NCBI GenBank assembly: GCA_022839745.1
Contig: JALHJB010000011.1
Span: 8,622 to 32,621, forward strand
Length of the DNA stretch: 24,000 bases
Source of the DNA: Actinomycetes bacterium
GTDB lineage: Bacteria > Actinomycetota > Coriobacteriia > Anaerosomatales > Anaerosomataceae
Direction of reading: 5' to 3'
A program made the position numbers and the translations under genes. Shown here in pieces: positions 1-17,450 of this stretch. Under the pieces are notes generated by a model that searched no databases, had not been told where the DNA came from, and worked only from the letters and a program-made list of their open reading frames with translations. Positions within the stretch are counted from its first letter, which is position 1. Each line of letters starts with the position of its first letter.

Positions 1-447
1 CTTGTCCGCGAGCGCGTACACACCCGATGGCGGCTGGACGCTCTGCGGCGGAAGGTCTACGACATCCTCGACACTGTCCACTATCAGACAGATCCTGTGC
101 GATCCCGCCGTACAGAAGACCATCGGCGTCTCGAGCGTGTACGGCACCCCCTCCAGGCCAACGAGCGTGCGCAGATCGAGCACCGGGATCACCGCACCCC
201 GCAACTCGATCAGTCCCACGAGGGCCGGGTCATCGTCCGGGACCGGCAGAAGCTCGGCCAGCTGCTGGATCTCGTCGACCCGCTCGATCGGCAGGCCATA
301 GAGTTGTCCGGCGAGCCGGAACGCTACGGCGCGATCGATATCGCTCAGCGAGGGCGCCGGTGCGGCGCCCTCAGCGAGCGTGTCAGCCTTGGCGTCGGAG
401 CCGATCGCGTCGATCACATCATCCTGTGTGTGCTCATTGCCCAACAC
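1..447 (-). CDS. cheW: CheW-like chemotaxis coupling protein (partial; C-terminus runs off the left window edge)
   Basis: Missing from the ORF track because the frame is open at the window edge. Minus-strand translation starts at GTG 447, with AAGGAG at 453-458 and a 5 nt spacer. It reads VLGNEHTQDDVIDAIGSDAK...AVAFRLAGQLYGLPIERVDEIQQLAELLPVPDDDPALVGLIELRGAVIPVLDLRTLVGLEG...CLIVDSVEDVVDLPPQSV. This is the classic CheW-domain pattern. The frame stays open to position 1 (149 codons) with high GC3. The RBS overlaps the stop of the upstream gene, so the two are in one operon. Confidence 0.8.
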   Translation of the reverse strand, partial: MLGNEHTQDDVIDAIGSDAKADTLAEGAAPAPSLSDIDRAVAFRLAGQLYGLPIERVDEIQQLAELLPVPDDDPALVGLIELRGAVIPVLDLRTLVGLEGVPYTLETPMVFCTAGSHRICLIVDSVEDVVDLPPQSVQPPSGVYALADK

Positions 448-457
448 GCGAACTCCT

Positions 458-2311
458 TCACCCGGTGAAGCGCAGGACCCTGTTCAGTTCCTCGGCACTG
501 ACCTCACCATTCTTGACCCTCAACAGGCCCGCAGCCGCCAACGGACGCATGCCAGCGGCGGTGGCCGCCGCGGAAATATCACTGACACCGGTGGCACGGC
601 CCACCGCGGCCCGTACGGGTTCGGTGAACGGCAGCACCTCGTGGATCGCGATGGCGCCGCGGAAGCCCGACTTGCCGCAGTTGGGACACCCCGACCCCGC
701 TCTGTCGCGGAGCCCCGCCGGCGCGCCCGGGATGCGGGACGCCAGCACGCCGTCGGTCTCGACCGAGCAGTTCGGGCAGTTGAGGCGCACGAGCCTCTGT
801 CCTACGGCAAGTGTGAGGGCCGCAGCGAGGCTATGCGGTTCGGCGCCAAGGTCGAGCATACGCCAGATACCCGAGGCGATATCCGCCGCCGCGAAGGTGG
901 CCACCACGAGCTTGCCCATCCCTGCCGCCTCGACCGCGAGGTGCACGTCCTCGACGCTTCGCAACCCGTCGACCGCGATCACATCGGTGTCCTGACGCAT
1001 CCCCGCGGCGATGTACGCTGCCGAGGACAGCCCGCCCGGCTCGATCATCACCTGGGCGACCGCCGGGATCTCATGTTCGATCGACTGCTCAACGGAGTAC
1101 ACGGTCTTGCCGGCCCCCGCGGCATGGGCGAGCAACGCGTAGTACGTTGCGCTCGCACCGCCCGCCACGGGTGCGCACACGAGCAGGATCCCCCGCCCGC
1201 GCTCGACCATCGCCCTGAGCGCACGCGCCTCGGCCTCGGAAACGCCGAGCTCCTCGAGCCCCCGCGGCTCAGCCTTGAAGGCGGCAAGCGAGACAACGAG
1301 GCGCTGCCCCGCGATCGTAGGCACGACCGAGATCGTGAGCACAAGGTCCTTGTCGGCGATATGCGTGCGGACCCTTCCGAGCGCCGGCCGCGTGGCCGGA
1401 ACGCCGCCAAGGTGCGCGTACTGCTTGAATCCGTCCACAAGCCCGTTCTGCAGAGAAAGCGGCGCCGAAGCGATCTTCTCGAGGCTTCCCCTGACGCGAT
1501 AGACCAGGAAGAAGTCGTCCTTGTATGGCAGCAGGTGTATCCGGCTCGCGCCTCTGGCGACCGCGTGGTCCAGGATGTCGGCCACGAGCACCGCGACCTT
1601 GCGGGTGTCAGCCACGGCGAGCACATCAAGGTCGATCGCCGCCGGCCCGGACTGCACCGCGGACTCGGCGGCCATCTGTTCCATCGTCTCGCTGATGGCC
1701 ACCGCCGCCCGGCTCGACGCGGCCTCGTCCACGGGAGCGACCGGAACGGCCGCCGTTTGATCGAGGGGCTCCTCGAAGAAATCCGAAGCCTCGACGACCT
1801 CGGTGTCGACATCGGCCGGAACACCCGGCGCCTGGGCGGCCGCGGAATCAGCGTGCTGCGCAACGGCCGCGTCGGTGTAGTACTGGCCGAGGGCGTTGTC
1901 CACTGACACCGGATCGGCGAGAACAGCCTCGACCTCCAGGCCGATGCGCTCGGCCACGGTGTCAAGGGCGAAGACGTCCATCGGGTCACCGACAGCGACG
2001 GTCAACATACCCTCGATCTCGAAGAGCGGCAGCACGCGGAACTCGCGCGCGACCGGAGCGGGCACGAGTGCGATGGCGTCGTCTTCGGGCGCATAGCTCG
2101 CCAGGTCGACCTGAGGGACACCCATCTCGTGCTCGAGCACCGACATCACATCGAATGGGCTCACATAGGCGCGCTCCATCAGGATCGCACCCTCATGGGT
2201 GCCCGCGGACCGCGCGGCATCCACCACGCTGCCCGCCTGCTCCGCTGTCATCAGCCCGGCCTCGACCAGACCGTCGAGGACCCGGCGTGAGATCCCGCTT
2301 GCCGGCGACAT
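458..2311 (-). CDS. GspE/PilB-family secretion-ATPase-like protein with an N-terminal T2SSE_N/MshEN-like domain; catalytic motifs degenerate (predicted pseudo-ATPase)
   Basis: 617 aa ORF. The N-terminus (LDGLVEAGLMTAEQAGSVV...GVPQVDLASYAPEDDAIALVPAPVAREFRVLPLFEIEGMLTVAVGDPMDVFALD) matches the T2SSE_N fold. The core (ILDHAVARGASRIHLLPYKDDFFLVYRVRGSL...) and the C-terminal tetracysteine CPNC...CPNC match GspE/PilB. The Walker A position reads APVAGGAS, the GEIRD position reads DGLRS, and the His-box position reads ATFAAAD. Confidence 0.85.
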   Translation of the reverse strand: MSPASGISRRVLDGLVEAGLMTAEQAGSVVDAARSAGTHEGAILMERAYVSPFDVMSVLEHEMGVPQVDLASYAPEDDAIALVPAPVAREFRVLPLFEIEGMLTVAVGDPMDVFALDTVAERIGLEVEAVLADPVSVDNALGQYYTDAAVAQHADSAAAQAPGVPADVDTEVVEASDFFEEPLDQTAAVPVAPVDEAASSRAAVAISETMEQMAAESAVQSGPAAIDLDVLAVADTRKVAVLVADILDHAVARGASRIHLLPYKDDFFLVYRVRGSLEKIASAPLSLQNGLVDGFKQYAHLGGVPATRPALGRVRTHIADKDLVLTISVVPTIAGQRLVVSLAAFKAEPRGLEELGVSEAEARALRAMVERGRGILLVCAPVAGGASATYYALLAHAAGAGKTVYSVEQSIEHEIPAVAQVMIEPGGLSSAAYIAAGMRQDTDVIAVDGLRSVEDVHLAVEAAGMGKLVVATFAAADIASGIWRMLDLGAEPHSLAAALTLAVGQRLVRLNCPNCSVETDGVLASRIPGAPAGLRDRAGSGCPNCGKSGFRGAIAIHEVLPFTEPVRAAVGRATGVSDISAAATAAGMRPLAAAGLLRVKNGEVSAEELNRVLRFTG

Positions 2312-2320
2312 CCGCCGCCC

Positions 2321-2701
2321 CTAACCCTGTACCTTGGACAGCTCTTCAGCGACCGCCGCCAGCAACGTGTCCGGCTCGACGGGCTTCGTCAGATACTGGT
2401 TAGCACCGGTGCGGATACCGGTGGCCATAGCCTGCTCCTCGGTCTTGGCCGTGAGCATGATGATCGGGATCTGCTTGTAGTTCTGGTCGAACTTCAGGAG
2501 CCGACAGACGCGATAGCCGTCAAGCTTGGGCAGCATCACGTCGAGCAGGATGAGATCGGGCTTCTCGGCCCGGGCGGTCTCGAGCGCCTCGGCACCGTCA
2601 GATGCGGTGATCACGTCGTACCCACCCGCAAGAAGGATCGCCTTGATCATCTCGAGGATGGTAGGGCTGTCATCGACCGCGAGGATCCGAGCGCCTGCCA
2701 T
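2321..2701 (-). CDS. Single-domain CheY-like response regulator (receiver domain only)
   Basis: 126 aa reading ARILAVDDSPTILEMIKAILLAGGYDVITASDGAEALE...PDLILLDVMLPKLDGYRVCRLLK...IPIIMLTAK...YLTKP. It carries the DD...D...T...K receiver signature. RBS GGGAGGGAG lies upstream. The gap to the next gene is 9 nt. Confidence 0.9.
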   Translation of the reverse strand: MAGARILAVDDSPTILEMIKAILLAGGYDVITASDGAEALETARAEKPDLILLDVMLPKLDGYRVCRLLKFDQNYKQIPIIMLTAKTEEQAMATGIRTGANQYLTKPVEPDTLLAAVAEELSKVQG

Positions 2702-2768
2702 ACGAGTCTCCCTCCCGATTGCCCGCGGAGCGCGCCGGACCCCCGGCGCATCACCGCATCCGGTCCCA

Positions 2769-4349
2769 TTATCCCTTGCCGGCCGCTTTCCGACACTCTA
2801 TCAGACTACGTTCACACGTCCTGATCAGCAGATCCGCCTGAAACCCGCCAGAGAACTCGGTCCAGTCGCCCTCGGGACTCTTCCTGAGAGCACGTAGGGC
2901 GTTCTCGTACTCCTTGGCCGCCGCGTCGAACTGGCGCTGCGCCTTGTAGATATTGGCGAGGTTCAGGTGCGCCAGCGCGAAGTCGGCGTCGATGTACACC
3001 GTCTTCTTCAGCTCGCTGATGGCACGCACCGCGTCGCCCTGCCGCTGGTGGATGATGCCGAGGATGTACCGTGCCACCGGCAACAAGGGGTTGATCGCAA
3101 GCGCGCGATTGCACTCCGCGAGGGCCTCGTCGTAGTCACCGGTGTCCGCATGCACGTAGGCGAGCAGCAGGTGCGCGTCCGCGTTGTTCGGATCGAGCTC
3201 CAACACGCGTCGCGCCTCATCCACTGTCTGCTCCGGACGACCTTCGCGCAAATCGGTGCGCGCTCGGTCGAGGATGGCAGCCACGTCGCCCGTTGCCGCC
3301 GATGGCCGGGTCCCGGCGCTGCCCGGGGATCCCGCCGCCGTTGCGGCAGGCGTGCCGGATCCGGTCCGGGCTCGTGAGGAGCGTGCAGCGGACGCCGCCG
3401 GTTGCTGTGCGGTCGCGGCCGCACGCGCACGTTCTCTGCGGCTGTCACCGGCCCGCGCGCCATGCGGCGCCCGCGGATGGCCCGGCACGAACAGCGTCTG
3501 TGCCGCGGGCTTCCGATACAAGAAGACGTCGCCGACCTCAACAGCCTCGAAGTCGTCGCTGATCGAAGTGAGTGTCTCCGAGTGGCCGATGAACAGATAG
3601 CCGCCATCGTTCAGGCTGTCGTAGAAGTTGCGCACCACACGGCGCGTGGATTCGATCCTGAAGTAGATGGTGACATTGCGACAGAAGATGATGTCCCAGT
3701 TGCCCATCACCGATAGCGGATACGGCTCTTTGATGAGGTTCTGATAGCCGAAGTCCACGAGCGAGCGCACCCGGTCGTTCACGCGGTAGTCGCCGGTGGG
3801 GGTCATCTCGAAATGCCGCGCGACCATGTCGGGCGCCACGTTGGTCATCGCACGCCTGCCGTACACGCCAGCACGGGCCCGTCCGAGCGCCTTGGTGGAC
3901 ACGTCGGTCCCGAGCACCTGGGGATTCCATCCGCTCGCGCTGAGCGCCATATCGTTCAGCAGCATCGAGAGGGAGTACGGCTCCTCGCCCGTGGAACATC
4001 CGGCGGACCATATCCGCAGGTCGCGATTGCCGACGGGTTTCGAGGCCATGATCTCCGGTAGCACCTGGTCCCGAAGCGCGTCGAACTGCGCCGGGAAGCG
4101 GAAGAAGCTGGTCTCGTTGATGGTCACGAGGTTCAGCAGCTCATTGAACTCACGGTCGTCCTTCTCAAGAGCGTTGTAGTACTCATCGAACGTGGTGTAG
4201 CCGAGCCGCGTGGCCCGCGTCACGAGCGAGATGCGTAGCGAGTCGAGCTTGGACTCCTCGAGGTAGATGCCCGAGTGCCGGTGGACAAGGTCCCGGAAGC
4301 GGCGGAACTCCTCGAGGTCGAGGTCCTTGGCGAGTCCCTCGTTCAGCAT
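2769..4349 (-). CDS. cheR: CheR-type protein-glutamate O-methyltransferase with a C-terminal TPR domain
   Basis: 526 aa. The N-terminal two thirds are CheR (FRRFRDLVHRHSGIYLEESKLDSLRISL...NETSFFRFPAQFDAL...LRIWSAGCSTGEEPYSLSMLL...IFCRNVTIYF...GGYLFIGHSE). An Ala/Ser/Gly-rich linker follows. The C-terminus holds TPR repeats (ADAHLLLAYVHADTGDYDEALAECNRALAINP...AHLNLANIYKAQRQFDAAAKEYENAL). Confidence 0.9.
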   Translation of the reverse strand: MLNEGLAKDLDLEEFRRFRDLVHRHSGIYLEESKLDSLRISLVTRATRLGYTTFDEYYNALEKDDREFNELLNLVTINETSFFRFPAQFDALRDQVLPEIMASKPVGNRDLRIWSAGCSTGEEPYSLSMLLNDMALSASGWNPQVLGTDVSTKALGRARAGVYGRRAMTNVAPDMVARHFEMTPTGDYRVNDRVRSLVDFGYQNLIKEPYPLSVMGNWDIIFCRNVTIYFRIESTRRVVRNFYDSLNDGGYLFIGHSETLTSISDDFEAVEVGDVFLYRKPAAQTLFVPGHPRAPHGARAGDSRRERARAAATAQQPAASAARSSRARTGSGTPAATAAGSPGSAGTRPSAATGDVAAILDRARTDLREGRPEQTVDEARRVLELDPNNADAHLLLAYVHADTGDYDEALAECNRALAINPLLPVARYILGIIHQRQGDAVRAISELKKTVYIDADFALAHLNLANIYKAQRQFDAAAKEYENALRALRKSPEGDWTEFSGGFQADLLIRTCERSLIECRKAAGKG

Positions 4350-4371
4350 CCCGTCACCACATGAGTGCTCA

Positions 4372-5103
4372 TCACGCAGGGACCTCGATGCGCTCGATCA
4401 GACCCGCGGCGTGCATGCCGTAGAGGATCTTGGCGGTCTCAAAATCGTTGTAGCCGGTGAGGTCGACGAGCTCTTTGACCGACCGGCCACCGTGCAGGTA
4501 GCACAGCAGCATCCATTCGCGCGGCTTGAGGTGTATCTCCATCGACTTGTCGCCGGGAGCCGAGGCCATGACGAACTCGGTCTCCATGTTCGGGATCTTC
4601 TGCTTGATCCTGCTCCACAGTTCGAGCCTGCGCGACGCCTCCATGATGATGTTCTCGACCGAGACCGAGATGCCGATGTCCTCATCATCACAGGTCTCGT
4701 CAGGCTCGAAGCGCAGTTCTCCCTCTTCCCAGCGGAACAGGTCGAACAGCGTGTCGTTGATCTGCTCCTGGATGAACGACTCCAGCACACGGCCGTCGAG
4801 GTAGCCCTCATCCACGAGGATCTGTCCCAGCCTGCGCCCGGCCTTCTCCTTCTTCTGGATCTTCTGGAGGCCAAGCGCCTGCCGGAGCTGCTTCTCGGAG
4901 ATGACACCCGCCTTCACCAAACGCCTGCCCAGCGACTCACGATGCCAGTTGGAGCTCGCGAAGAACACGCGGCCCTTCTTGAAGCAGACTTTGCCCTGCG
5001 CGTCGGGCCGCTCCAGATACAGGGTGCCGGTCTTCCGGCCGGTGGCGAGCAGACGGAACATGTCCGCAATGGAGAAATCTCTGAGGTTGCCCTCGAGCGC
5101 CAC
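4372..5103 (-). CDS. PATAN/DUF4388-domain protein with a tandem MshEN-type (GspE-N-like) motif region
   Basis: The ORF track extends to 5241. I prefer GTG 5103 because GAGGGG sits 8 nt upstream, giving the N-terminus (M)ALEGNLRDFSIADMFRLLATGRKTGTLYLE, which is typical of DUF4388. The 5104-5241 stretch has visibly lower GC3 and contains a candidate promoter. The central region LGRRLVKAGVISEKQLRQALGLQ...RRLGQILVDEGYLDGRVLESFIQEQ resembles the T2SSE_N/MshEN motifs. Confidence 0.8.
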   Translation of the reverse strand: MALEGNLRDFSIADMFRLLATGRKTGTLYLERPDAQGKVCFKKGRVFFASSNWHRESLGRRLVKAGVISEKQLRQALGLQKIQKKEKAGRRLGQILVDEGYLDGRVLESFIQEQINDTLFDLFRWEEGELRFEPDETCDDEDIGISVSVENIIMEASRRLELWSRIKQKIPNMETEFVMASAPGDKSMEIHLKPREWMLLCYLHGGRSVKELVDLTGYNDFETAKILYGMHAAGLIERIEVPA

Positions 5104-5177
5104 AGGTCGCACCCCTCGTATCGCGTCAACGCAGCGGGAGTATCGGTTCAGCCGGCCCCTCGGGCGGCTGCCACTCA

Positions 5178-5186
5178 ATCGTAGCA
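5178..5186 (-). promoter_or_regulatory. Candidate extended -10 element (TGCTACGAT on the minus strand) for the chemosensory-like operon
   Basis: It matches TGnTAnnnT. The same TGCTA-type element recurs upstream of ftsE, smpB and ssrA in this window. It lies about 75 nt upstream of the preferred GTG start at 5103. No clear -35 element was found. Confidence 0.3.
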
Positions 5187-5271
5187 CGTCAGACAGGTCG
5201 CTCAAACGTTTGCGGATTTGTCCTGAATCAGTCTTGCGCACCGCCTTAAACTAGCTTACGCTTCATCTTGT

Positions 5272-5306: not shown

Positions 5307-5633
5307 GTGGATCAGAGCGAGTTCTTCTGCCTGCACTCGGATCTCTGCAAGACGCTCGCGAGCCCCAAGCGGCAGATGATCCTGAGCGCACTCAGAGACG
5401 GAGAGTCGGCCGTCAATGAGATCCAGGAGCGTACCGGCATCCCGCAGGCCACCCTCTCCCAACACCTCGCGATCCTCCGCTCGGCGGGCGTCGTCCGCAC
5501 CAGGCGCGAAGGCAACCGCATCTTCTACGCGATCACCAACCCCAAGATCATCCAGGCGTTCGACCTGATCACCGAGGTGATGCAGGAGATCATTGACGGT
5601 CGTAAGGACGCTGCGAACGGCGCCGAGGGCTGA
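5307..5633 (+). CDS. ArsR/SmtB-family winged-helix transcriptional regulator
   Basis: The sequence LCKTLASPKRQMILSALRDGESAVNEIQERTGIPQATLSQHLAILRSAGVVRTRREGNRIFYAI is the canonical ArsR HTH. I prefer GTG 5307, 4-5 nt after GGAGG. The in-frame ATG 5277 used by the track has no SD and would put the palindrome inside the CDS. Both starts share the stop at 5633. Confidence 0.85.
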   Translation: MDQSEFFCLHSDLCKTLASPKRQMILSALRDGESAVNEIQERTGIPQATLSQHLAILRSAGVVRTRREGNRIFYAITNPKIIQAFDLITEVMQEIIDGRKDAANGAEG

Positions 5634-5691
5634 AAGCGGTCGCGCGCGACTGCCGGGGATAGCACGGACTACCGACACGAGGGAGGCATCA

Positions 5692-6174
5692 GTGGACGAG
5701 AACGGAAAGAAGAGCCTGGCGATGGTGGTGATGAGCGGCGACTTCGACAAGTTGACAGGCGCATTCATCATCGCAAACGGCGCCGCCGCAATGGGCATGG
5801 ACGTGACGATGTTCTTCACGTTCTGGGGCCTGCGTGCGCTGAAGAAGAACGTTCGCACGGGGAGCACGTTCTTCGGCAAGATGGTCGGCCTGATGTACGG
5901 CGGGGGCATCGAGAAGTCCCACCCGTCGAAGTTCGCCTTCGGTGGCATGGGCCGGTGGATGTTCAACAAGATGATGAAGAACCACGGCGTGCAGTCGCTG
6001 TCCGAGATGCGCGACCTCGCCCTCCAGCTCGGCGTCGGCCTCTACGCCTGTCAGATGTCGATGGACGTCATGGAGATCCCCCAGGAGTCCTTCGTAGATG
6101 GCGTGAAGGACCCGGTCGGCGTGGGCTTCTTCCTGCTCAAGGCGCAGAACGCCGACATCCAGTTGTTCATCTAG
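5692..6174 (+). CDS. DsrE/DsrF-like family sulfur-relay protein (DsrE2/DsrE3-type, COG2210-like)
   Basis: Start is GTG 5692 after GAGGGAGG; the track ORF begins upstream at 5593 in the same frame. The sequence LAMVVMSGDFDKLTGAFIIANGAAAMGMDVTMFFTFWGLRALKK...LYACQMSMDVMEI...IQLFI has the DsrE-like fold pattern. It contains a single conserved-looking Cys, in YACQMS. Confidence 0.75.
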   Translation: MDENGKKSLAMVVMSGDFDKLTGAFIIANGAAAMGMDVTMFFTFWGLRALKKNVRTGSTFFGKMVGLMYGGGIEKSHPSKFAFGGMGRWMFNKMMKNHGVQSLSEMRDLALQLGVGLYACQMSMDVMEIPQESFVDGVKDPVGVGFFLLKAQNADIQLFI

Positions 6175-6271
6175 CGACACCAGGCTCGGAAGTATCCGCC
6201 CGCCCTGATGGCGAGCGGTGGGGATGGATCGCGCGCCACCGGGCGCGTGACTGACAGAAAGGAACCACACC

Positions 6272-6514
6272 ATGTCTGACGAGACCAAGATCGACCTGGA
6301 GCTCGACCTCAAGGGCCTCCTCTGCCCGCTGCCGATGGTGAAGGTCAGCCAAAACATCAACAACGTGCCGGTGGGCGGCGTGATCCGCGCCGTGGCGACC
6401 GACCCGGGTGCCATGGCGGACATCCCCGCGTGGGCACAGTCGACCGGCAACGAGGTCCTGTCCGCCGACAAGGAAGGCTCCGAGTTCGTCTTCCTCGTCA
6501 AGCGCGTCAAGTAG
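6272..6514 (+). CDS. tusA: TusA/SirA-family sulfurtransferase
   Basis: 80 aa reading LDLKGLLCPLPMVKVSQNINNVPVGGVIRAVATDPGAMADIPAWAQSTGNEVL. It has the CPxP active-site motif and the typical TusA length. Confidence 0.85.
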   Translation: MSDETKIDLELDLKGLLCPLPMVKVSQNINNVPVGGVIRAVATDPGAMADIPAWAQSTGNEVLSADKEGSEFVFLVKRVK

Positions 6515-6533
6515 CGAGGGGTCCTCACCAACA

Positions 6534-7262
6534 ATGGAAACCTATCTCTGGATAACCTCGGTATGGGGGGTGTACCTGGCCCTCGCGGTCTTCATCGTGG
6601 GGATCGGCCTCCGGATCTACCAGTGGGCGACCACGCCGAAGTCAGCGGTTCGGCTCGGGATGTTCCCCAAGCCGGCCACAAAGTCGGGCCGCTTCTTCAA
6701 GATGCTGAAGGACACGTTCATCGCTCCGCACTCCGCCAAGATCGAACCCACGATGTGGCTCTTCTCGATGATCTTCCACGTGGCGGCGCTCGCGGCGTTC
6801 GTGGGGCACCTGCGCATCCTCGGCGAGTACCCGATCCTGCCGGGGCTGCTCGGCGGCGAGCACGCCATGAACAACTTCGCCGCGTACGCCGGGTCGATCG
6901 CCGGCACGCTCATGCTGGTAGGCGTGGTGTTCTGGATCGCACGGCGCACCTTCGGCCCGTACAAAAACCTCTCGGTGCCGGAGGACTACCTGCTGCTCGC
7001 CCTGCTCTTTGGCGTGATCATCATGGGCGACCACCTGCGCTTCGTGTACGGCGGCTTCATCCACGCCGACACGTACCAGGAGTGGTTCAAGAGCCTGCTG
7101 GCCTTCAAGCCGATGTTCCCTGAGAAGCTGCTCTCGGGCAACGTGGGCTGGTCGCTCGGCACGCACATGCTCTTCACCGACCTGCTGCTGATGTACTTCC
7201 CGTTCAGCAAGCTCGTGCACACCATCGGGTCATTCGCCGCGAACTACGTGAGGAGTGAGTGA
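6534..7262 (+). CDS. DsrM/HdrE/NarI-like integral membrane di-heme cytochrome b (quinol-interacting subunit)
   Basis: Start is ATG 6534 (METYLWITSVWGVYLALAVFIVGIGLRIYQW...); the track ORF starts earlier in the same frame. It has multiple hydrophobic helices with conserved-type His residues (FHVAALAAFVGHLRILG, GDHLRF, FIHADTY, KLVHTIGSF), as in nitrate reductase gamma / DsrM family proteins. Its stop is coupled to the next gene: the two are 2 nt apart and the RBS of the next gene lies inside this gene. Confidence 0.7.
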   Translation: METYLWITSVWGVYLALAVFIVGIGLRIYQWATTPKSAVRLGMFPKPATKSGRFFKMLKDTFIAPHSAKIEPTMWLFSMIFHVAALAAFVGHLRILGEYPILPGLLGGEHAMNNFAAYAGSIAGTLMLVGVVFWIARRTFGPYKNLSVPEDYLLLALLFGVIIMGDHLRFVYGGFIHADTYQEWFKSLLAFKPMFPEKLLSGNVGWSLGTHMLFTDLLLMYFPFSKLVHTIGSFAANYVRSE

Positions 7263-7264
7263 CG

Positions 7265-8578
7265 ATGGAGAAGGTGCAACTCGAGACCCTGACGGGTGTC
7301 ATCGACAAGAAGATGAACCGGCAGCTCAAGCAGTACATCGACATCTGCGCACGCTGCGCCATCTGCAAGGATGCCTGCCACCAGTACGTGGGCACCGGGG
7401 ACTTCAAGTACCTCCCCGCCCGCCGGGCTGAGCTGATCCGGCAGATCTACAAGAAGTACTTCGACAAGGCGGGCCGCTTCGTGCCGGCGCTCTACGAGGC
7501 GCGCGAGCCCGATGACAACCTGCTCGATGAGCTGTACGACTCCACGTACGCCTGCACCGGCTGCCGCCGCTGCATGTACTACTGCCCCTTCTCGATCGAC
7601 ACCGCGTGGATCCTCTCAGTGGCCAAAGCGATCCTGATCGCCGCCGGTCGTGGGAACGAGATGCTCGGCCAGCTCGCCGACGCCGCGATCTTCAAGGGCG
7701 ACAATGCGGCGATGTTCGAGGGCGTGATGCTGAGCGGTTTCGACGACATCTCGGAGGAGGTCCGCGCTATCACGGGCAACCCCGAGCACAAGGTGCACGT
7801 GAACAAGGAGGGCGCGGACGTCCTGTACGTGGCGCTCGCCGGTGCGCACTCGATCCGCCCGGCCGCGGTCATCTTCGAGGAGGCCGGCGAGAACTGGACC
7901 ATCTCCATGTTCGAGGCGGCCAACTACGGCTTCTTCTACGGTGACACGGAGAAGGCGCGCATCATCACCAAGCGCTACATCGACGAGGCCAAGCGTCTCG
8001 GCGTGAAGGAGATCGTGGTGCCCGAGTGCGGACACGCCTACCGCGTGGCCGAGTTCTTCTACGAGGCGTGGAGCAAGGAGCCGATGCCCTTCAAGGTCAG
8101 CCATATCCTTGAGAAGGTCGACGACTACATCAAGTCCGGCCGCATAAAGGTGGATCGCGGCAAGATCGCCGGTAAGGTCACCTACCACGACCCGTGCCAG
8201 CTCGGCCGCAACGGCGGCAAGTTCGAGCAGCCGCGCGACATCGTGAAAGCCGTCACGAGCAACTTCGTGGACCTCACGCCCAATCGGGCCGAACAGTGGT
8301 GCTGCGGCGGAGGCGGCGGCATCGTGGCTATGGAGGAGTTCAAGGACGTCCGGCTGAAGTCGGGCATCAAGAAGGTCGAGCAGCTCAAGGCGAGCGGCGC
8401 CAGCGTTCTGGCGTGCCCCTGCGAGAACTGCCGCCTGCAAATCGAGGAACTCAACGACGTGCACGGCCTTGGTCTTGAGATCTGGCAGGTCATCGACCTG
8501 GTGGTGGCGGCTATGCCGCTTCCGGGCAGCCAGCGTTCAGTCGAGGCCGCCCCCGCTGGGGAGGGCGCCAACGCGTAA
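7265..8578 (+). CDS. DsrK/HdrD-like iron-sulfur oxidoreductase (two ferredoxin-type 4Fe-4S motifs plus a C-terminal CCG domain)
   Basis: Start is ATG 7265, 9 nt after AGGAG 7251-7255; the track uses GTG 7259. Motifs are CARCAICKDAC, CTGCRRCMYYCP, and HDPCQLGR...WCCGGGGG...CPCENC. The last follows the C..CCG..CxxC pattern of heterodisulfide-reductase-type catalytic subunits. Confidence 0.8.
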   Translation: MEKVQLETLTGVIDKKMNRQLKQYIDICARCAICKDACHQYVGTGDFKYLPARRAELIRQIYKKYFDKAGRFVPALYEAREPDDNLLDELYDSTYACTGCRRCMYYCPFSIDTAWILSVAKAILIAAGRGNEMLGQLADAAIFKGDNAAMFEGVMLSGFDDISEEVRAITGNPEHKVHVNKEGADVLYVALAGAHSIRPAAVIFEEAGENWTISMFEAANYGFFYGDTEKARIITKRYIDEAKRLGVKEIVVPECGHAYRVAEFFYEAWSKEPMPFKVSHILEKVDDYIKSGRIKVDRGKIAGKVTYHDPCQLGRNGGKFEQPRDIVKAVTSNFVDLTPNRAEQWCCGGGGGIVAMEEFKDVRLKSGIKKVEQLKASGASVLACPCENCRLQIEELNDVHGLGLEIWQVIDLVVAAMPLPGSQRSVEAAPAGEGANA

Positions 8579-10419: not shown

Positions 10420-10788
10420 ATGGACGACACCCGCTACGACATCCCCGCCGATGACACCGATCTGCTTGCCGAGTGCGACGTTTGGGTCTTCCGCGCCACC
10501 GGACCGGGTGGGCAGGGCGTGAACACCACCGACAGCGCGGTACGCCTGCGTCACCGGCCGAGCGGCATCACGGTAGTGTGCCGTCGGGAGCGCAGTCAGC
10601 TCCAGAACAAGCGTGCGTGTCTCGAGCGCCTGCGCGAAAAGCTGGAGGAGCACAACGCCGCGCTCGACGCCCCCAAGCGCGTGCCCACCCGGAAGAGTCG
10701 CGCGGCCAAGGCACGGCAGGTGGAGGCGAAACGATACCGGGCGCGCGTTAAGCGCGCGCGGGGACGCGTGGACCGCGGCGAGGAGTAG
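10420..10788 (+). CDS. arfB: Alternative ribosome-rescue factor ArfB (RF-1-domain peptidyl-tRNA hydrolase)
   Basis: Start is ATG 10420; the track ORF begins upstream at 10219. 122 aa reading [48 protein letters not shown]. It has the GGQ motif followed by a Lys/Arg-rich C-terminal tail, the ArfB/YaeJ architecture. Confidence 0.85.
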
Positions 10789-10882: not shown

Positions 10883-11234
10883 TGGTGGAGGCGAGGAGAA
10901 TCGAACTCCTGTCCACGACAGCCCCCTGGGGAGCATCTCCAGGCTCAGTCACATCTTGGCGTTCGGTTCGGGCGACACGGTGTGACGAGCGTGCCCGTTC
11001 CTAGCTGGTTCGGTCTTTCGCACAAGCATACCGGCTACGTCTTATGCGGCAGTCCCCTGAGTGACGTCAGATCCGGTGACGGGGACTCGCACCGGGAGAC
11101 GTCGCTGCGCTATTTAGGCAGCGAGAGCAAAGTCATTGTCGACGTTTGAGCGTCGTGTGCCCCTGTTTAGCGAGGTAAGGCGACCTCGGCCTGCTTCTCC
11201 CCTCAGAACTCCCGTGTCGAAACCAGTCGCCCCC
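10883..11234 (-). ncRNA. ssrA: tmRNA (transfer-messenger RNA, SsrA)
   Basis: The minus-strand 5' end GGGGGCGACTGGTTTCGACACGGG pairs with the 3' end ...GGAGTTCGATTCTCCTCGCCTCCACCA. The acceptor stem has a G3:U pair, a T-arm GTTCGATTC and an encoded CCA. The internal tag reading frame is ...GTC GAC AAT GAC TTT GCT CTC GCT GCC TAA (…VDNDFALAA-stop, about 11114-11146). It ends in the canonical ALAA. Confidence 0.9.
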
Positions 11235-11418: not shown

Positions 11419-12519
11419 ATGGACCAGAACGAGTACCCGCCTCCCCCGTCTGCACCTGAACCACCCCCGGCACCAGTGACTCCTCCTGAGCCGCAGCCCG
11501 CCCCTCCGGCTGAGCCCGCACCCCCCGCACCCCCCGCGCCGCCGGCGCCCGAGATCCCGCCGCCCCCGGCCCCGATGGCTCCACCGCCACCGATGCCCAC
11601 CGCGGCACCGGTCACGCCGCCGGCAGCCCCTCCCCAGGCAGCTCCGCCTGTGGCGCCTGCGGCCCAGTACGCACCACCGCCTCCACCCGACGCGGGCACG
11701 CCGGCCTATGCCGCGCAGGCCACTCCCCCGCCTAAGAAGAGCAAGACGCTCGTGATCGTGCTCGTGATCCTCGGCGTGCTGCTCCTCTGCTGCATCGGCT
11801 CGGTCATCGGCGGCCTGACGATCTTCTCGAGCACGGTGGACGAGGTCAGCAGTTCCCTTGAAGACGCCGGGATCGATGTGGAGGTGCCGGACACACAGAC
11901 CGGTGATACCGGCTCCGGTGATGTGACCGGAGGACGGGCCGAGTGGGAGGCATTCCAACCGCAGCTCGTCGACGCATCCATCTATGCCGAGCCGACCGCG
12001 GCGCAGTCGGCCCTGATAGAGGAGATCCACAACGAGCTGTATCCGGACTTCATAATCGAAGACACGGTTGCCGAGCCGGGAATCGAGGACGCCGAGTCGT
12101 ACCATCCGGACATGCTGTACGTGAAGGCCTCGCTGGCACGCGACCCGGATGTCCGGATCGCCTACTACCTGTGGACCGATTCCGAGGCATCGAAGGCCGG
12201 AGGCGTCCACTTGACCGAGGACCAAACCGAGACCTACGAGACGCTCGCGCAGTCGTCGGACGGCACGTACTACATCTACGATCATGAGAACCTCATGGAC
12301 CTGATGAGCGGCTCGGTCGACGACGATCTGGTATCGGTGCTCAAGCAGGCCGAGGTGGACTTCCCGGGTTACGTCGCCATCATGGCGGGCGACGATGGCG
12401 ACAACATCGGTGTCGTCGTCACGCGCTGGGAGGCGTTCCCGGACCTGGAGGAGGGCCTTGCGGTCACGTTCTCGCCCGACGGGAACGGCTGGGCCGTCCA
12501 GGACGTGACGGACTGGTAG
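11419..12519 (+). CDS. Hypothetical single-pass membrane protein: about 110 aa proline-rich N-terminus, one TM helix, acidic C-terminal domain
   Basis: 366 aa with SD GAGAGGAG upstream. The N-terminus is PPPPSAPEPPPAPVTPPEPQPAPPAEPAPPAPPAPPAPEIPPPPAP.... It is followed by KKSKTLVIVLVILGVLLLCCIGSVIGGLTIF (a TM helix) and then a 230 aa Asp/Glu-rich domain with no family I recognise. Confidence 0.7.
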   Translation: MDQNEYPPPPSAPEPPPAPVTPPEPQPAPPAEPAPPAPPAPPAPEIPPPPAPMAPPPPMPTAAPVTPPAAPPQAAPPVAPAAQYAPPPPPDAGTPAYAAQATPPPKKSKTLVIVLVILGVLLLCCIGSVIGGLTIFSSTVDEVSSSLEDAGIDVEVPDTQTGDTGSGDVTGGRAEWEAFQPQLVDASIYAEPTAAQSALIEEIHNELYPDFIIEDTVAEPGIEDAESYHPDMLYVKASLARDPDVRIAYYLWTDSEASKAGGVHLTEDQTETYETLAQSSDGTYYIYDHENLMDLMSGSVDDDLVSVLKQAEVDFPGYVAIMAGDDGDNIGVVVTRWEAFPDLEEGLAVTFSPDGNGWAVQDVTDW

Positions 12520-12619: not shown

Positions 12620-13090
12620 CTACTCGCCCTTGTTCCGGTCTCGCAGCGCGCGTTCGACATCGCGCTTCTGGTCGCGCTCGGCGATCGCATCGCGCTTGTC
12701 ATACAGCTTCTTGCCCCGGGCCAGGCCGATCTCGACCTTCACGAGGTTCCCCGGCGAGAGGTAGACCTTGAGTGGCACGAGCGTGTACCCGCGCTCTTTG
12801 GTCTTGCCGAGCAGATACCGGATCTCGGAGCGGTGCAGCAACAGCTTCCGCTCCCGATCGACCCGCACGTTGCTGCGGTTCCCATGGCTGTATGGCGAGA
12901 TGTGGACGTTGTGCAGCCAGACCTCGCCTCGCCTGATCGTGGCGAAGCTGTCGCGCAGGTTCGTCTTGTTCTCGCGCAGCGACTTGACCTCGGTGCCGGT
13001 GAGCACGATGCCGGCCTCGAACGTCTCGTCCACGAAGTAGTCGTGGTACGCCTTCTTGTTGGTGGCGATGATCTTCTCTTCACGGGCCAT
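12620..13090 (-). CDS. smpB: SsrA-binding protein SmpB
   Basis: Start is ATG 13090 ([67 protein letters not shown]...LLLHRSEI...[11 protein letters not shown]...[17 protein letters not shown]). This is an unmistakable SmpB sequence. The track ORF extends 29 codons further upstream. Confidence 0.95.
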
Positions 13091-13127
13091 GCGGTGCGTG
13101 GTTCCTCTCATACTATGCGACGTGCTG

Positions 13128-13137
13128 ATGCTAGCAT
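13128..13137. promoter_or_regulatory. Perfect 10 bp palindrome ATGCTAGCAT that reads as an extended -10 (TGCTAGCAT) on both strands; candidate symmetric bidirectional promoter
   Basis: On the minus strand it lies about 38 nt upstream of smpB ATG 13090. On the plus strand it lies about 33 nt upstream of ATG 13170. Both readings match TGnTAnnnT. Confidence 0.35.
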
Positions 13138-13169
13138 GAGCGTGAGGATGATCCGCGAAAGGACACGAC

Positions 13170-13457
13170 ATGGACACGATGGGCTACCAGCAACCGGCAC
13201 CCGCTCAGCGGAACGACCCCCAGTACATCGCGTATCTCGAGCAGCGTATCGCCGCACTCGAGGCACGTCTGCCACGCACGAAGGTCGTCGCACCGGGCTT
13301 CTGGACGCGCGCGTTCGCTATCTGGGGCCATGGCCTCGCGGCGCAGTTCGTGGTTGGCGCCGTGCTCGGCATCGTGTTCACGCTGATCAGCCTCGTCTTC
13401 GCAGGCGGAATGGCCGCCATGCTCGGGCCCGTCCTCGAGAACGCGACGTACTACTAG
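13170..13457 (+). CDS. Hypothetical small membrane protein (95 aa)
   Basis: AAAGGA lies upstream of ATG 13170. GC3 is good. The C-terminal half is hydrophobic ([41 protein letters not shown]). I recognise no family. Confidence 0.5.
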
Positions 13458-15356: not shown

Positions 15357-17450
15357 CTACGCCAGCTCGAAGTCCAGCCGGCGCTCGCTCACGCTCGCGT
15401 CGAGGACCCGGACCGTCACCTGTTGGCCGAGACGATAGCTCGTACCCGTGGCCTCGCCTCGCAACAGGAAGCGTTCCGCGTCGAGCCTGTAGTAGTCATC
15501 GGCCATCGTGTCCACATGCACAAGACCTTCCGCTGTGTTTTCCAGCTGAACGAACAGCCCGAACCCCACGACCCCGGTGATGATGCCGCCGAACACCTCG
15601 CCGAGGTGCCGTGCCATCAGAGCGACGAGCTTCACCTTCTGACTGTCGTCCTCAGCGGCTTCCGCCTCGCGCTCCATCGTGGACGAGTGCTCCGCGAGCC
15701 ACTCGAGCTCCGGCACCATCAGCGAAGTGGGCGGCATGTCAAGCGTGCGCGACAACTGCGCTTTGAGCAGCCGGTGCACGATCAGGTCGGGATACCGGCG
15801 TATGGGGCTGGTGAAGTGCGTGTACGCGGTGCTCGCAAGACCAAAGTGCGGACCCAGGTAGTCCACATAACGAGCCCGCTCGAGCGCCCGCAGCACGAGC
15901 GAGTTGATGAGCCGCTCTTCCGGCCTGCCGTGCGCGAACGCGACGATCTTCTGAAAGGTTGCGGGTGTCGCTCCGTGCAACTCCTGCACGGGGTAGCCGA
16001 ACTCCTTGAGGATCACGGACACCTGCGCGAGAGCGTCCGCGTCGGGGTCCTCGTGGATGCGGTAGACCATCGGCGCCTTGGCTGTCGTCATGTGCCGCGC
16101 CACAACCTCGTTGGCGGCGATCATCGCCTCCTCGATCATGTTCGTGGCTTCGGTGCGCGACCGGAGCACCACGTCGATCGGCTCCCCGCGGTCGTCGAGC
16201 GTCACCCGTGCTTCGACCGTGTCGAAGTCGAGACCGCCTCTCGCGATCCGTCGCTCGTGGATACGAGCGGCCACGGTGCGGAAGTCCGTGAGCGCGCGCT
16301 CGCTCTGCTCGTCCGGGAATCCCCCGCCGTCGAACCAGCCCTGCACCTGGTCGTAGTCGAAGCGACGGTCGCTCCTGATGACGGACGGATAGCATTCGTA
16401 GCGCTCCACGAGCCCCGTCTTGTCGAGCACCATCTCAACGGTGAACGTGAGCCTGTCCTCCTGTGGATTGAGCGAGCAGATGACGTTGGAGAGATGCTCG
16501 GGAAGCATCGGCAAGACACGGTCCACCAGGTACACGCTGGTCGCCCGATGCCGCGCCTCAACGTCCACCACCGAGTCCCATGGCACGTAGTGGCTCACAT
16601 CCGCGATGTGCACCCACAGGCGGAACCCCTTGCCCTCGCGCTCGATGGAGATCGCGTCGTCGAAGTCGCGTGCGTCCGCCGGGTCTATCGTGAACGTGAA
16701 CAGGTCGCGGACGTCACGCCGCCCTCGCGCCAACTCGCCGTCGATGTCCTGACGCAACGCCTCGGCGGCCTCGATGACATCCGTGGGGAACTCGGTTGCC
16801 AGGCCGTGTTCGCGGATGATGATCTCCACGTCCACACCCGGAGCGCCTTCGGGGCCGAGCACTTCGGTCAGCACACCCTGCATCGCGTCCCGCCTGTCCG
16901 CATATCGCGTGATACGAGCGACCACGATGTCGTTAGGATGCGGCGACAGCTCGCTTCTGGGCAAATCTATGAACAGGTCCCCGCGGATGCGCGGGTCGGT
17001 GGGTACCACGATCCCGAGCTTTCCGTGACGCTCGAACCGGCCCACCACCTCGGTCACGCCGCGCTCGATGATCTGCACGACCTCGCCGGACCTGCCGAGA
17101 TGCGACCCGCGCGGATCCACTCGCACGCCCACGGTATCGCCGTGCATCGCGCCGTTCATGTCCCGCTTGCCCACGTAGATGTCGCCGAGCGGAGAGCTCA
17201 CGAACCCGAAGCCCCGACGGTTGACCGAGAGCCGCCCCACCACCAGGTGCCGCTCCTTCAGTGGGAGGTACATCCCGTTCCCCACGTCGGCGACCAGGCC
17301 GGACTTCTCGAGTTGGCGCAAAACGTTGGCCACGCGCTCGACATCGAGCCCCGGCCCTCCGCCGAGCTCTACGGCGCCCGCGACGCCGGCGGCGTCAAGC
17401 GGAGTCGACGCCGAACGCAGCGTCTTCAACACGAGCTTGTCCGGTCGCAT
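15357..17450 (-). CDS. rnr: Ribonuclease R (RNB-family 3'-5' exoribonuclease with a C-terminal S1 domain)
   Basis: 697 aa. It has N-terminal winged-helix/cold-shock-like regions (RRGFGFV). The RNB core reads FTIDPADARDFDDAISIE...HIADVSHYV...ATSVYLVDRVLPMLPEHLSN.ICSLNP...YTHFTSPIRRYPDLIVHR. The C-terminal S1 region reads GIITGVVGFGLFVQLENTAEGLVHV. Confidence 0.95.
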   Translation of the reverse strand: MRPDKLVLKTLRSASTPLDAAGVAGAVELGGGPGLDVERVANVLRQLEKSGLVADVGNGMYLPLKERHLVVGRLSVNRRGFGFVSSPLGDIYVGKRDMNGAMHGDTVGVRVDPRGSHLGRSGEVVQIIERGVTEVVGRFERHGKLGIVVPTDPRIRGDLFIDLPRSELSPHPNDIVVARITRYADRRDAMQGVLTEVLGPEGAPGVDVEIIIREHGLATEFPTDVIEAAEALRQDIDGELARGRRDVRDLFTFTIDPADARDFDDAISIEREGKGFRLWVHIADVSHYVPWDSVVDVEARHRATSVYLVDRVLPMLPEHLSNVICSLNPQEDRLTFTVEMVLDKTGLVERYECYPSVIRSDRRFDYDQVQGWFDGGGFPDEQSERALTDFRTVAARIHERRIARGGLDFDTVEARVTLDDRGEPIDVVLRSRTEATNMIEEAMIAANEVVARHMTTAKAPMVYRIHEDPDADALAQVSVILKEFGYPVQELHGATPATFQKIVAFAHGRPEERLINSLVLRALERARYVDYLGPHFGLASTAYTHFTSPIRRYPDLIVHRLLKAQLSRTLDMPPTSLMVPELEWLAEHSSTMEREAEAAEDDSQKVKLVALMARHLGEVFGGIITGVVGFGLFVQLENTAEGLVHVDTMADDYYRLDAERFLLRGEATGTSYRLGQQVTVRVLDASVSERRLDFELA

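Follow-up and report, generated by a model that had tools for sequence, protein, structure and literature searches.

A conserved chemosensory operon with a likely PATAN, CheY and PilB look-alike output suggests signaling through a non-working motor copy

Introduction

The window analyzed here is a 24,000-nucleotide (nt) stretch of DNA from an Actinomycetes bacterium of the Anaerosomatales (GenBank assembly GCA_022839745.1, contig JALHJB010000011.1, positions 8,622 to 32,621 of the forward strand), and its left end holds part of a chemosensory operon in which a protein resembling the type IV pilus ATPase PilB lacks the residues of an ATPase. Five tightly packed genes occupy positions 1-5103 of the minus strand in the order PATAN/DUF4388, CheR-TPR (TPR, tetratricopeptide repeat), CheY, the PilB-like protein and CheW. 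The 617-amino acid (aa) non-catalytic PilB-like protein encoded at 458..2311 (minus strand) is termed psPilB throughout. The five genes, in order of transcription, are as follows.

4372..5103, minus strand: PATAN (DUF4388) protein, stand-alone, 243 aa (Pfam PF14332, E 8.9e-34)
2769..4349, minus strand: CheR methyltransferase (CheR_N plus S-adenosylmethionine domain), linker and TPR, 526 aa (Pfam CheR, E 6e-58)
2321..2701, minus strand: CheY, single-domain receiver, 126 aa (Pfam Response_reg, E 1.5e-30)
458..2311, minus strand: psPilB, PilB/GspE-family paralogue, 617 aa (Pfam T2SSE, E 1.2e-55; MshEN, E 7e-17)
1..447, minus strand: first CheW, GTG start at 447, 186 aa in full with its 3′ end beyond the window edge (Pfam CheW, E 2.2e-24)

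From PATAN to CheW, successive genes are 22, 67, 9, and 10 nt apart; GAAGGAG, which serves as the ribosome-binding site of cheW, overlaps the TGA that ends psPilB. All of this, the five co-directional genes with their coordinates, narrow gaps and overlapping ribosome-binding site, agrees with an earlier sequence-only reading of the window. That reading had also placed the PATAN start at the GTG at 5103, giving 243 aa, which is the start chosen by the gene caller on an identical contig, and had named the product PATAN/DUF4388, an identity that a profile hidden Markov model bears out (PF14332, 116.6 bits with the cut-off at 25; an insertion divides the match into two stretches).

Results

The remainder of the operon was recovered from contigs identical to the window, which were found by exact look-up of the 617-aa psPilB sequence; on the 40-kb one (L001), the first CheW is followed by a second CheW, a 408-aa methyl-accepting chemotaxis protein (MCP), a 798-aa CheA and CheB, which completes nine genes and brings the full chemosensory core (CheW twice, MCP, CheA, CheB, and CheR) together on one contig. 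CheA contains one Hpt, an HATPase_c, a CheW and a C-terminal receiver (REC) domain, with no P2 domain listed, and a CheA that has a C-terminal REC and no P2 is typical of the ACF, Tfp, F3, and F5 classes (PMC10782961). The MCP begins with two transmembrane helices that are ~8 residues apart and form a hairpin, followed by HAMP and MCPsignal domains, and it therefore has no sensor domain outside the membrane. In the CheR-TPR protein, a low-complexity linker joins the methyltransferase part (CheR_N, E 1.1e-11) to C-terminal TPR repeats (several TPR families, E 1e-11 to 1e-15, at aa 355-493), and the same kind of CheR-TPR fusion is seen in FrzF and WspC. The left end of the window represents the 5′ half of a chemosensory operon that has nine genes, is self-contained and has been inherited vertically. 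The core of this operon (hairpin MCP, two CheW, CheA-REC, and the adaptation enzymes CheR-TPR and CheB) is non-flagellar in type.

After CheB, L001 continues with glutamate racemase, a metallo-beta-lactamase-fold protein, RNase PH and Ham1. A pilus locus to the left of the window was considered and rejected, since the rest of the che operon and then these housekeeping genes lie there, with no pilus or Tad locus carrying an intact ATPase. The claim that no pilus or flagellar gene is present in the 24 kb holds and can be extended: genes for pilins, PilC/M/N/O/Q, Tad or flagellar proteins are absent from the window and from the 10 kb leftward of it (~34 kb in total), and no prepilin motif was found in any reading frame of the window.

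psPilB belongs to the GspE/PilB family (T2SSE, PF00437) by both sequence and fold, but not by its Walker A, Walker B, Asp box and His box. Its sequence matches those of solved PilB structures with E 1e-67 (PDB PilB, E 4.5e-67), and it scores 270.4 bits against TIGR02538, the PilB equivalog, which is below the cut-off of 675.65. In the AlphaFold2 (AF2) model, an N1 (MshEN) domain at aa 1-150, with a predicted local distance difference test score (pLDDT) above 90, is followed by a disordered acidic linker at aa ~158-220 and then by an N2 and a RecA-like C-terminal domain of the PilB type, and the best PDB matches of this model in Foldseek are PilF, PilB, and GspE (E 5e-33). The motifs that set psPilB apart, and one that it retains, are the following.

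1151..1174, minus strand: degenerate Walker A, APVAGGAS for GPTGSGKT, no Lys (alignment to solved PilB)
956..997, minus strand: degenerate Walker B region, RQDTDVIAVDGLRS for RQDPDIIMVGEIRD, catalytic Glu gone (alignment to solved PilB)
677..778, minus strand: tetracysteine zinc motif CPNC...GCPNCG, retained (family alignment)

Walker B has changed from GEIRD to DGLRS and the Asp box from EDPxE to EQSIE, while in the His box, downstream of Walker B, TGH has become MGK and LHTN has become FAAA so that both histidines are lost. The zinc cysteines C511, C514, C541, and C544 are invariant in a 28-sequence family alignment, as are 190 positions in all. The loss of the PilB-like catalytic motifs, first noticed in the window alone, is real: it is seen in the alignment to solved PilB, and the Walker A Lys, the Walker B Glu, the Asp box and both His-box histidines are absent in 120 of the 120 closest homologues (57-100% identity), all of which come from uncultured Coriobacteriia or Actinomycetota. 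The degenerate motifs are themselves kept across these 120, and in the window's clade the stretch surrounding the former active site shows strong conservation. An intact PilB from psPilB's own clade was not found, the closest intact ATPases to psPilB being from Nitrospirota and Bacillota.

The ratio of nonsynonymous to synonymous substitution rates (dN/dS) of psPilB is 0.05-0.08 against the four closest genomes compared and 0.16 against the most distant, which is the range of the neighboring MurI and RNase PH. psPilB is thus under strong purifying selection despite the lost motifs and must be functional other than as an ATPase, and we infer that it is a conserved pseudo-enzyme that is no longer able to hydrolyze ATP.

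Conservation of the operon within the clade was examined in a scan limited to one genome per species, in which 109 loci were found and 80 were kept, all from metagenome-assembled genomes (MAGs) of Anaerosomatales/OPB41-type Coriobacteriia and from strain EMTCatB1. The order PATAN-CheR-CheY-psPilB-CheW-CheW-MCP-CheA-CheB is kept in all 80 wherever sequence exists, with the first five genes present in 66 loci and all nine in 52. Within the clade, PATAN is 50-97% identical to its counterpart in the window at every locus except one, which is frameshifted; the ranges for psPilB and the first CheW are 51-95% and 37-83%. An intact psPilB open reading frame (ORF) of ~610 aa is missing from two of the 80, which have a frameshift in psPilB (L084) or in neighboring operon genes (L040), both on long-read MAG contigs. 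A search with the PATAN profile returned the same clade throughout and has no bearing on breadth. Whether the five genes are co-conserved had been raised with the first reading, and the strict colinearity in 80 species-level genomes, together with the same cassette in distant lineages, answers this in the affirmative; the CheY, PATAN and psPilB trio is inherited as a unit.

CheY is the most conserved protein of the operon, with 77-100% identity within the clade and a dN/dS of 0-0.009 against the four closest genomes compared and 0.035 against the most distant. Its phospho-acceptor residues (DD10-11, D54, T84, and K106) are each conserved in at least 98% of 80 orthologues, and its sequence is closer to the PleD and PhoP receivers than to enteric CheY.

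The PATAN protein is likewise constrained (dN/dS 0.01-0.04). Its AF2 model (pLDDT 83, predicted template modeling score 0.75) starts with a small N-terminal sheet (a beta/alpha part), continues with four inserted helices (aa 58-98) and a long helix, and closes with a winged-helix-like domain at the C-terminus. No PDB structure matched the whole protein, and the C-terminal ~72 residues match a winged helix with a probability of 0.99 but with E 0.26, which is above any significance threshold. There is no Response_reg match in the 243 aa and the receiver is a separate gene, so that the protein is not a PATAN-REC of the PatA type. The helical insertion of PATAN domains has been termed an “alpha-clip” and is related to the N-terminal repeats of the ATPases of type II secretion systems and type IV pili (10.1101/2021.06.11.447907). 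The present protein has such a clip, as seen in the modeled helices at aa 58-98 and in the alignment of this segment to the N-terminus of Vibrio cholerae MshE (residues 6-71, PDB 5HTL, E 9.2e-7), and it carries the following feature.

4762..4935, minus strand: MshEN_N-like motif pair of the cyclic di-GMP (c-di-GMP) type in PATAN, aa 57-114, consisting of SLGRRLVKAGVISEKQLRQALGLQ, a 10-aa spacer and RLGQILVDEGYLDGRVLESFIQEQ

The MshEN motif is made up of two tandem 24-residue units of the form RLGxx(L/V/I)(L/V/I)xxG(L/V/I)(L/V/I)xxxxLxxxLxxQ with ~5 residues between them (PMC5013675). Motif II of the PATAN protein fits this strict pattern and motif I departs from it at the first Arg; the pair scores 45.2 bits against a cut-off of 38 for the NCBIfam family NF053729 (“c-di-GMP_motif, MshE-related”), which is also passed by the PATAN insertions of the distant cassettes L087 and L088 (41-42 bits). 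The “nucleotide-loaded” PATAN of the first reading thus gains some support in the form of a c-di-GMP-type motif, and binding of c-di-GMP by PATAN is plausible from these matches, although we would put it a little short of even. The MshEN N-terminus of psPilB itself is a different matter, since none of 81 sequences passes even a relaxed c-di-GMP motif.

Enzymes of c-di-GMP exist in the clade. A PAS-GGDEF-EAL gene with an intact RxGGDEF lies on the same strand 2-3 kb upstream of PATAN in the two loci checked (L083, 3202-4866; L070, 3731-5557), at least 15 Anaerosomatales-type loci have an ORF with an RxGGDEF motif in their upstream flank, 0.5-5 kb in (for example, L059, L062, L069, L074, and L081), and in L090 a HAMP-GAF-GGDEF gene is situated downstream, after Ham1.

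Fusions of PATAN to PilB were considered as Rosetta-stone evidence and rejected, as the PF14332 marks on Oceanithermus PilF-like ATPases are weak cross-matches to the alpha-clip. In P0293 and its relatives (883 aa, three MshEN domains), the precomputed marks cover profile positions ~48-88. Such spurious marks on PilF-like ATPases are a trap for surveys of domain architecture.

Distant versions of psPilB were sought among 1.84 billion cluster representatives and in a metagenome scan, and the contexts of distant members were inspected. Among the 150 best matches, 23 are without a canonical Walker A or Walker B by a strict pattern, and identity among these goes down to ~30%. The same cassette occurs in L087 (36% GC), in L088 and L091 (33% GC), in a group comprising L092, L098, L118, L119, L141, and L142 (40-58% GC), and in L090 (71% GC), and the genes that flank these distant cassettes are unrelated to those of the window. 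Identity between the window and the 33-36% GC cassettes is 64-72% for CheY, 59-60% for PATAN, ~52% for MCP, CheA, and CheB, 42-44% for CheR, 32-38% for CheW and 30% for psPilB. Within psPilB, across lineages (the window against L087, L088, L092, L098, L118, and L119), N1b (MshEN_C) is kept best (37-44%) and the ATPase domain worst (24-30%), whereas the trend is reversed when the window psPilB is compared in the same way with real PilBs, where the ATPase domain is at or above N1b. The C-terminal (ATPase) domain of the window psPilB is in fact nearer to real PilBs (32-38%) than to other psPilBs, and the C-terminal domains of the various psPilB lineages resemble one another less than each resembles real PilB. 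This inverted pattern of domain conservation could mean that psPilB degenerated independently in separate lineages. The Asp box and both His-box histidines are absent in every psPilB lineage.

In three of the distant cassettes, a 170-aa small GTPase-like gene of the MglA/Arf kind is inserted between PATAN and CheR (L087, 7526-8038; L088, 7529-8044; L091, 7600-8115). The L088 protein has the P-loop GPRGVGKTT and matches Arf (E 2.7e-7, 30.7 bits against the Pfam cut-off of 22.3), with 30.3 bits for TIGR00231 (small_GTP), below the cut-off of 42.5; the P-loop is intact in L088 and L091 and degenerate in L087. An MglA-type GTPase gene is absent from the window, in which only 22 nt separate PATAN from CheR, and equally from the rest of its clade and the lineages of 40-58% GC. 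The CheW genes also vary, the two being fused into one protein of 317-329 aa in L141 (11695-12648) and L142 (11707-12696), and the second CheW of L087 (12397-13242) having an N-terminal zinc ribbon. In L118, a metagenome contig of 41% GC, the psPilB ORF (5871-7516) is split into parts of 388 and 148 aa, by sequencing error or by a real disruption.

Transcription of the operon probably starts at a conserved block upstream of PATAN.

5178..5205, minus strand: probable operon promoter, -35 TTGAGC at 5205-5200, 16-nt spacer, -10 TACGAT at 5183-5178

TG precedes the -10 element, and ~75 nt separate the promoter from the PATAN start codon downstream. Between ArsR and PATAN, 14 genomes keep the block TTGAGC...cGTGCTACGATT amid otherwise diverging sequence, which makes it the probable promoter of the che operon. 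A generic promoter scan did not call this block, and scans for promoters and terminators within the operon gave nothing above chance. A longer, 289-aa PATAN ORF is rejected, as it would enclose the conserved promoter-like -35/-10 pair and was passed over by the gene caller in favor of the 243-aa form.

To the right of the operon, the window contains a divergent ArsR-DsrE-TusA-DsrMK-like cluster, and farther right a tmRNA/SmpB/RNase R/ArfB-like group, a CtpA-like protease, FtsEX, a NUDIX protein and a UbiD-like protein. An exact look-up of the UbiD-like protein, meant to carry the sequence farther rightward, returned no record. The first of these, at 5307-8578 (plus strand), is of a sulfur-relay type and encodes an ArsR-type regulator, a DsrE-like protein, TusA, a DsrM/NarI-like membrane protein and a DsrK/HdrD-like CCG protein. 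It is syntenic with the che operon in part of the clade only, and a palindrome adjoining the ArsR start (ACATTCGAATATGCGCATGT), kept in 14 genomes, is probably the ArsR operator. The ribosome-rescue neighborhood falls within 7 kb and comprises tmRNA (10883-11234, minus strand; Rfam 144.9 bits; tag peptide VDNDFALAA), SmpB (12620-13177, minus strand), RNase R (15357-17450, minus strand) and a small ArfB-like protein with an RF-1 domain (10420-10788, plus strand). At 11419-12519 (plus strand) there is a 366-aa ORF, also called as a gene on the identical contig, whose N-terminal third is extremely rich in Pro and Ala; it has a single membrane helix by prediction, and its C-terminal domain matches nothing in Pfam.

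Discussion

The output of this non-flagellar (Frz/Wsp/Tax-like) pathway is proposed to be a protein-protein switch that acts on a non-catalytic PilB paralogue, a reading to which we give an even chance of being right. The output module would consist of CheY, the stand-alone PATAN and psPilB. The MCP/CheW/CheA array would set the level of CheY~P, with CheA phosphorylating CheY, and CheY~P would then alter the association of PATAN and/or psPilB. PATAN might also integrate c-di-GMP through its MshEN-like alpha-clip. psPilB would dock by its conserved N1 domain and thereby occupy, recruit or block either a polarity factor or the platform of a type IV filament, encoded at another place in the genome. 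In this way the pathway would switch where or whether pilus-like appendages arise, by means of protein contacts and not by driving a motor.

Such a switch is suggested by four precedents. On its own, the PATAN domain binds PilB1's N-terminal half and PilC's N-terminal domain in Synechocystis, and the domain is enough to reverse phototaxis (10.1101/2021.06.11.447907). The N1 domain of GspE binds GspL (PDB 4PHT), and in real GspE/PilB proteins N1 is the domain that docks to platform proteins of the GspL/PilM type. Fusions of receivers to PilB with intact ATPase motifs occur, with the receiver either N-terminal (P0345, 690 aa) or C-terminal (P0349, 776 aa). Finally, PATAN proteins are recurrent neighbors of MglA-type GTPases (PMC4316618).

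The Anaerosomatales in culture are thin Gram-positive rods that lack motility and are coated with pili-like appendages (PMC9686372), which makes the formation or placement of appendages a reasonable target, and in one cultured member the appendages are present only on ferrihydrite (PMC9686372). The publications on cultured Anaerosomatales and on strain EMTCatB1 make no mention of pilus or chemotaxis genes. A bolder version of the proposal, which we hold tentatively and consider unlikely rather than likely, is that this is an unrecognized class of chemosensory output. Here psPilB would be a “decoy motor” that serves as a dedicated signal receiver and is loaded onto or unloaded from a filament platform or the cell pole by CheY~P and a c-di-GMP-sensing PATAN, thereby setting when and where pilus-like, possibly mineral-contacting, appendages form in non-motile subsurface Actinomycetota, and the psPilB family would represent a stepwise conversion of an ATPase to an adaptor.

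Several points weigh against the proposed switch. Each step past the phosphorylation of CheY by CheA is inferential. The data cover the cassette loci and their flanks, and an active PilB, PilC, PilM or pilins elsewhere in these genomes are assumed. No pilus gene lies beside the cassette in any lineage examined (the flanks of six others and the window), so the context gives no pointer to the target. As to the ligand, motif I of PATAN has, throughout the clade, a Ser in place of MshE Arg9, a residue that is important for binding (PMC5013675), and the spacer is 10 aa against 5. The motif glycines are lost from PATAN in the L092 and L118 lineages, yet the stretch LRQALGLxKIQK is still conserved there, so the constraint on this segment may reflect a protein contact rather than a ligand. 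Moreover, psPilBs from outside the Anaerosomatales keep AP..SGKT, with the Walker A Lys/Thr, and GIDE, with the Walker B Glu, and nucleotide binding may therefore matter in the psPilB family at large. With these residues kept in distant members while the Asp box and histidines are lost, psPilB looks like a stepwise-decayed PilB paralogue in which the N-terminal docking domain has been retained.

The same lack of pilus genes near the cassette would fit a different view of its purpose, namely that it governs a target other than a pilus, such as cell polarity, the choice of division site, exopolysaccharide or mineral attachment, with psPilB and PATAN as pure signaling proteins. There are precedents for this. 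PilB of Myxococcus xanthus is itself a signaling intermediary for exopolysaccharide (PMC5544727), Anabaena PatA works in heterocyst patterning and not in motility (10.1101/2021.06.11.447907), and the MglA-type GTPases that PATAN often has as neighbors (PMC4316618) are polarity proteins, such a GTPase being carried by some of the cassettes. We nevertheless consider it an unlikely explanation, if the most serious of the rivals, in view of the domain that psPilB has kept best, N1, which in real family members is the one that docks to the machine (PDB 4PHT), of PilB1 and PilC being the sole PATAN partners tested (10.1101/2021.06.11.447907), and of the pili-like appendages made by cultured relatives (PMC9686372).

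Alternatively, psPilB might stand on the input or scaffold side of the pathway, reporting the state of a filament machine to MCP and CheA, as in Pil-Chp-like mechanosensing, or tethering the array. The extreme constraint on CheY and PATAN beside psPilB, and not on the CheWs or the MCP, speaks against such a role, as do the binding of PATAN to PilB1 and the REC-PilB fusions, both of which put PilB-type proteins downstream of receivers. It would, on the other hand, suit an MCP that has no ligand-binding domain outside, so that its signal must come from the membrane or the cytoplasm, and it would suit the position of the psPilB gene directly before the two CheW genes, at a 10-nt gap, and the similarly high rates at which psPilB and the CheWs evolve. 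On this evidence an input or scaffold role is distinctly improbable.

That psPilB is still an NTPase, or an obligate nucleotide-binding switch, by way of non-canonical residues, and powers or gates a machine directly, could be argued from the AP..SGKT and GIDE kept outside the Anaerosomatales and from the strongly conserved surroundings of the former active site in the window's clade. We regard it as very improbable given that the Walker A Lys, Walker B Glu, Asp box and both histidines are absent in all 120 homologues of the clade, that the Asp box and both histidines are gone in all lineages, and that the ATPase domain is the fastest-evolving part of psPilB. The idea that the gene is a decaying remnant without function, carried along in the operon, has the loss of all catalytic motifs and the split ORF of L118 in its favor and is refuted by the selection and conservation data, with an intact ~610-aa ORF in all but two of 80 genomes, a dN/dS of 0.05-0.08 against the four closest, 190 invariant positions in the 28-sequence alignment and a confidently predicted fold.

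The route by which non-flagellar chemosensory pathways reach their targets is known for a few models, namely Frz, Wsp, Pil-Chp and the cyanobacterial Tax system. The present cassette gathers every candidate output part (CheY, PATAN, and psPilB) into a single operon that is kept across genomes of 33-71% GC, and the PATAN-to-PilB link can thus be tested directly with three small soluble proteins. psPilB also offers a natural example of a motor ATPase turned pseudo-enzyme, of which intermediate forms survive in other lineages. In addition, a likely sensory-behavioral system can now be assigned to a widespread, barely studied subsurface group, the two cultured members of which have been described as non-motile yet covered with appendages.

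Comparison With Known Systems

The sequence-only reading knew of no characterized pathway with this composition, and full-text literature searches, which have incomplete coverage, likewise returned no description of one, or of a dead PilB paralogue in a chemosensory operon. A review of second pilus ATPases mentions no catalytically dead PilB paralogue (PMC11656802). The accessory type IV pilus ATPases that it covers, TfpB and PilU, provide a parallel in that a second protein of the PilB/PilT family modulates the main motor, but these keep their ATPase motifs and lie outside chemosensory operons (PMC11656802). V. cholerae MshE (PDB 5HTL) resembles the PATAN insertion in having two 24-residue motifs of the RLGxxLLxxGLIxxxxLxxxLxxQ type; here, however, motif I starts with Ser and not Arg, the spacer has 10 aa and not 5, and the domain is inserted in PATAN and not placed at the N-terminus of an ATPase.

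Among chemosensory systems, a close one is the cyanobacterial Tax/Pix system of Synechocystis, in which PATAN-REC proteins of the PixG/PixE type act on PilB1. In both, PATAN comes first, ahead of CheY, CheW, MCP, and a receiver-bearing CheA. PATAN also acts as the output element by contacting a PilB-type protein in its N-terminal half, which in the present case is what the model proposes, and a link to c-di-GMP has been suspected for both. The differences from the cyanobacterial systems that were pointed out at the start, with PATAN separate from the receiver, a non-catalytic PilB-like partner and no pilus genes nearby, all stand. Here PATAN has no receiver and CheY is a protein of its own, the PilB-type partner is dedicated, non-catalytic and encoded inside the operon, there is a CheR-TPR and a CheB, the MCP has no photoreceptor or other sensor domain, and the hosts are non-motile Gram-positive Actinomycetota.

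In gene order the cassette matches Frz of M. xanthus, as CheW, CheW, MCP, CheA-REC, and CheB correspond to frzA-B-CD-E-G, and the CheR-TPR is like FrzF. The two CheW paralogues differ in their rate of evolution, as with the divergent FrzB (PMC6952110), and the Frz output reaches PilB through MglA and effectors, an MglA-like gene being present in some of the cassettes described here. The MCP is nevertheless anchored in the membrane and is not of the cytoplasmic FrzCD type, the only free receiver is the single-domain CheY and not a double receiver such as FrzZ, PATAN and psPilB are in the operon, and MglA/MglB are not found in the window's clade. Wsp of Pseudomonas (ACF class) shares the two CheWs, CheR-TPR, CheA-REC, CheB and a non-flagellar output, but that output is a REC-GGDEF protein that makes c-di-GMP, whereas here it is CheY/PATAN/psPilB and c-di-GMP, if involved, is an input. 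Pil-Chp of Pseudomonas and Acinetobacter (Tfp class) likewise signals by way of single-domain receivers, whose targets there are the pilus extension ATPase and cell polarity; its ChpA, however, has many Hpt domains where the CheA of the cassette has one, and it is encoded beside pil genes, with neither PATAN nor a dead ATPase. The cassette is a chemosensory pathway with a novel proposed output module based on a pseudo-enzyme, and it belongs to none of the Tax, Frz, Wsp, and Pil-Chp systems.

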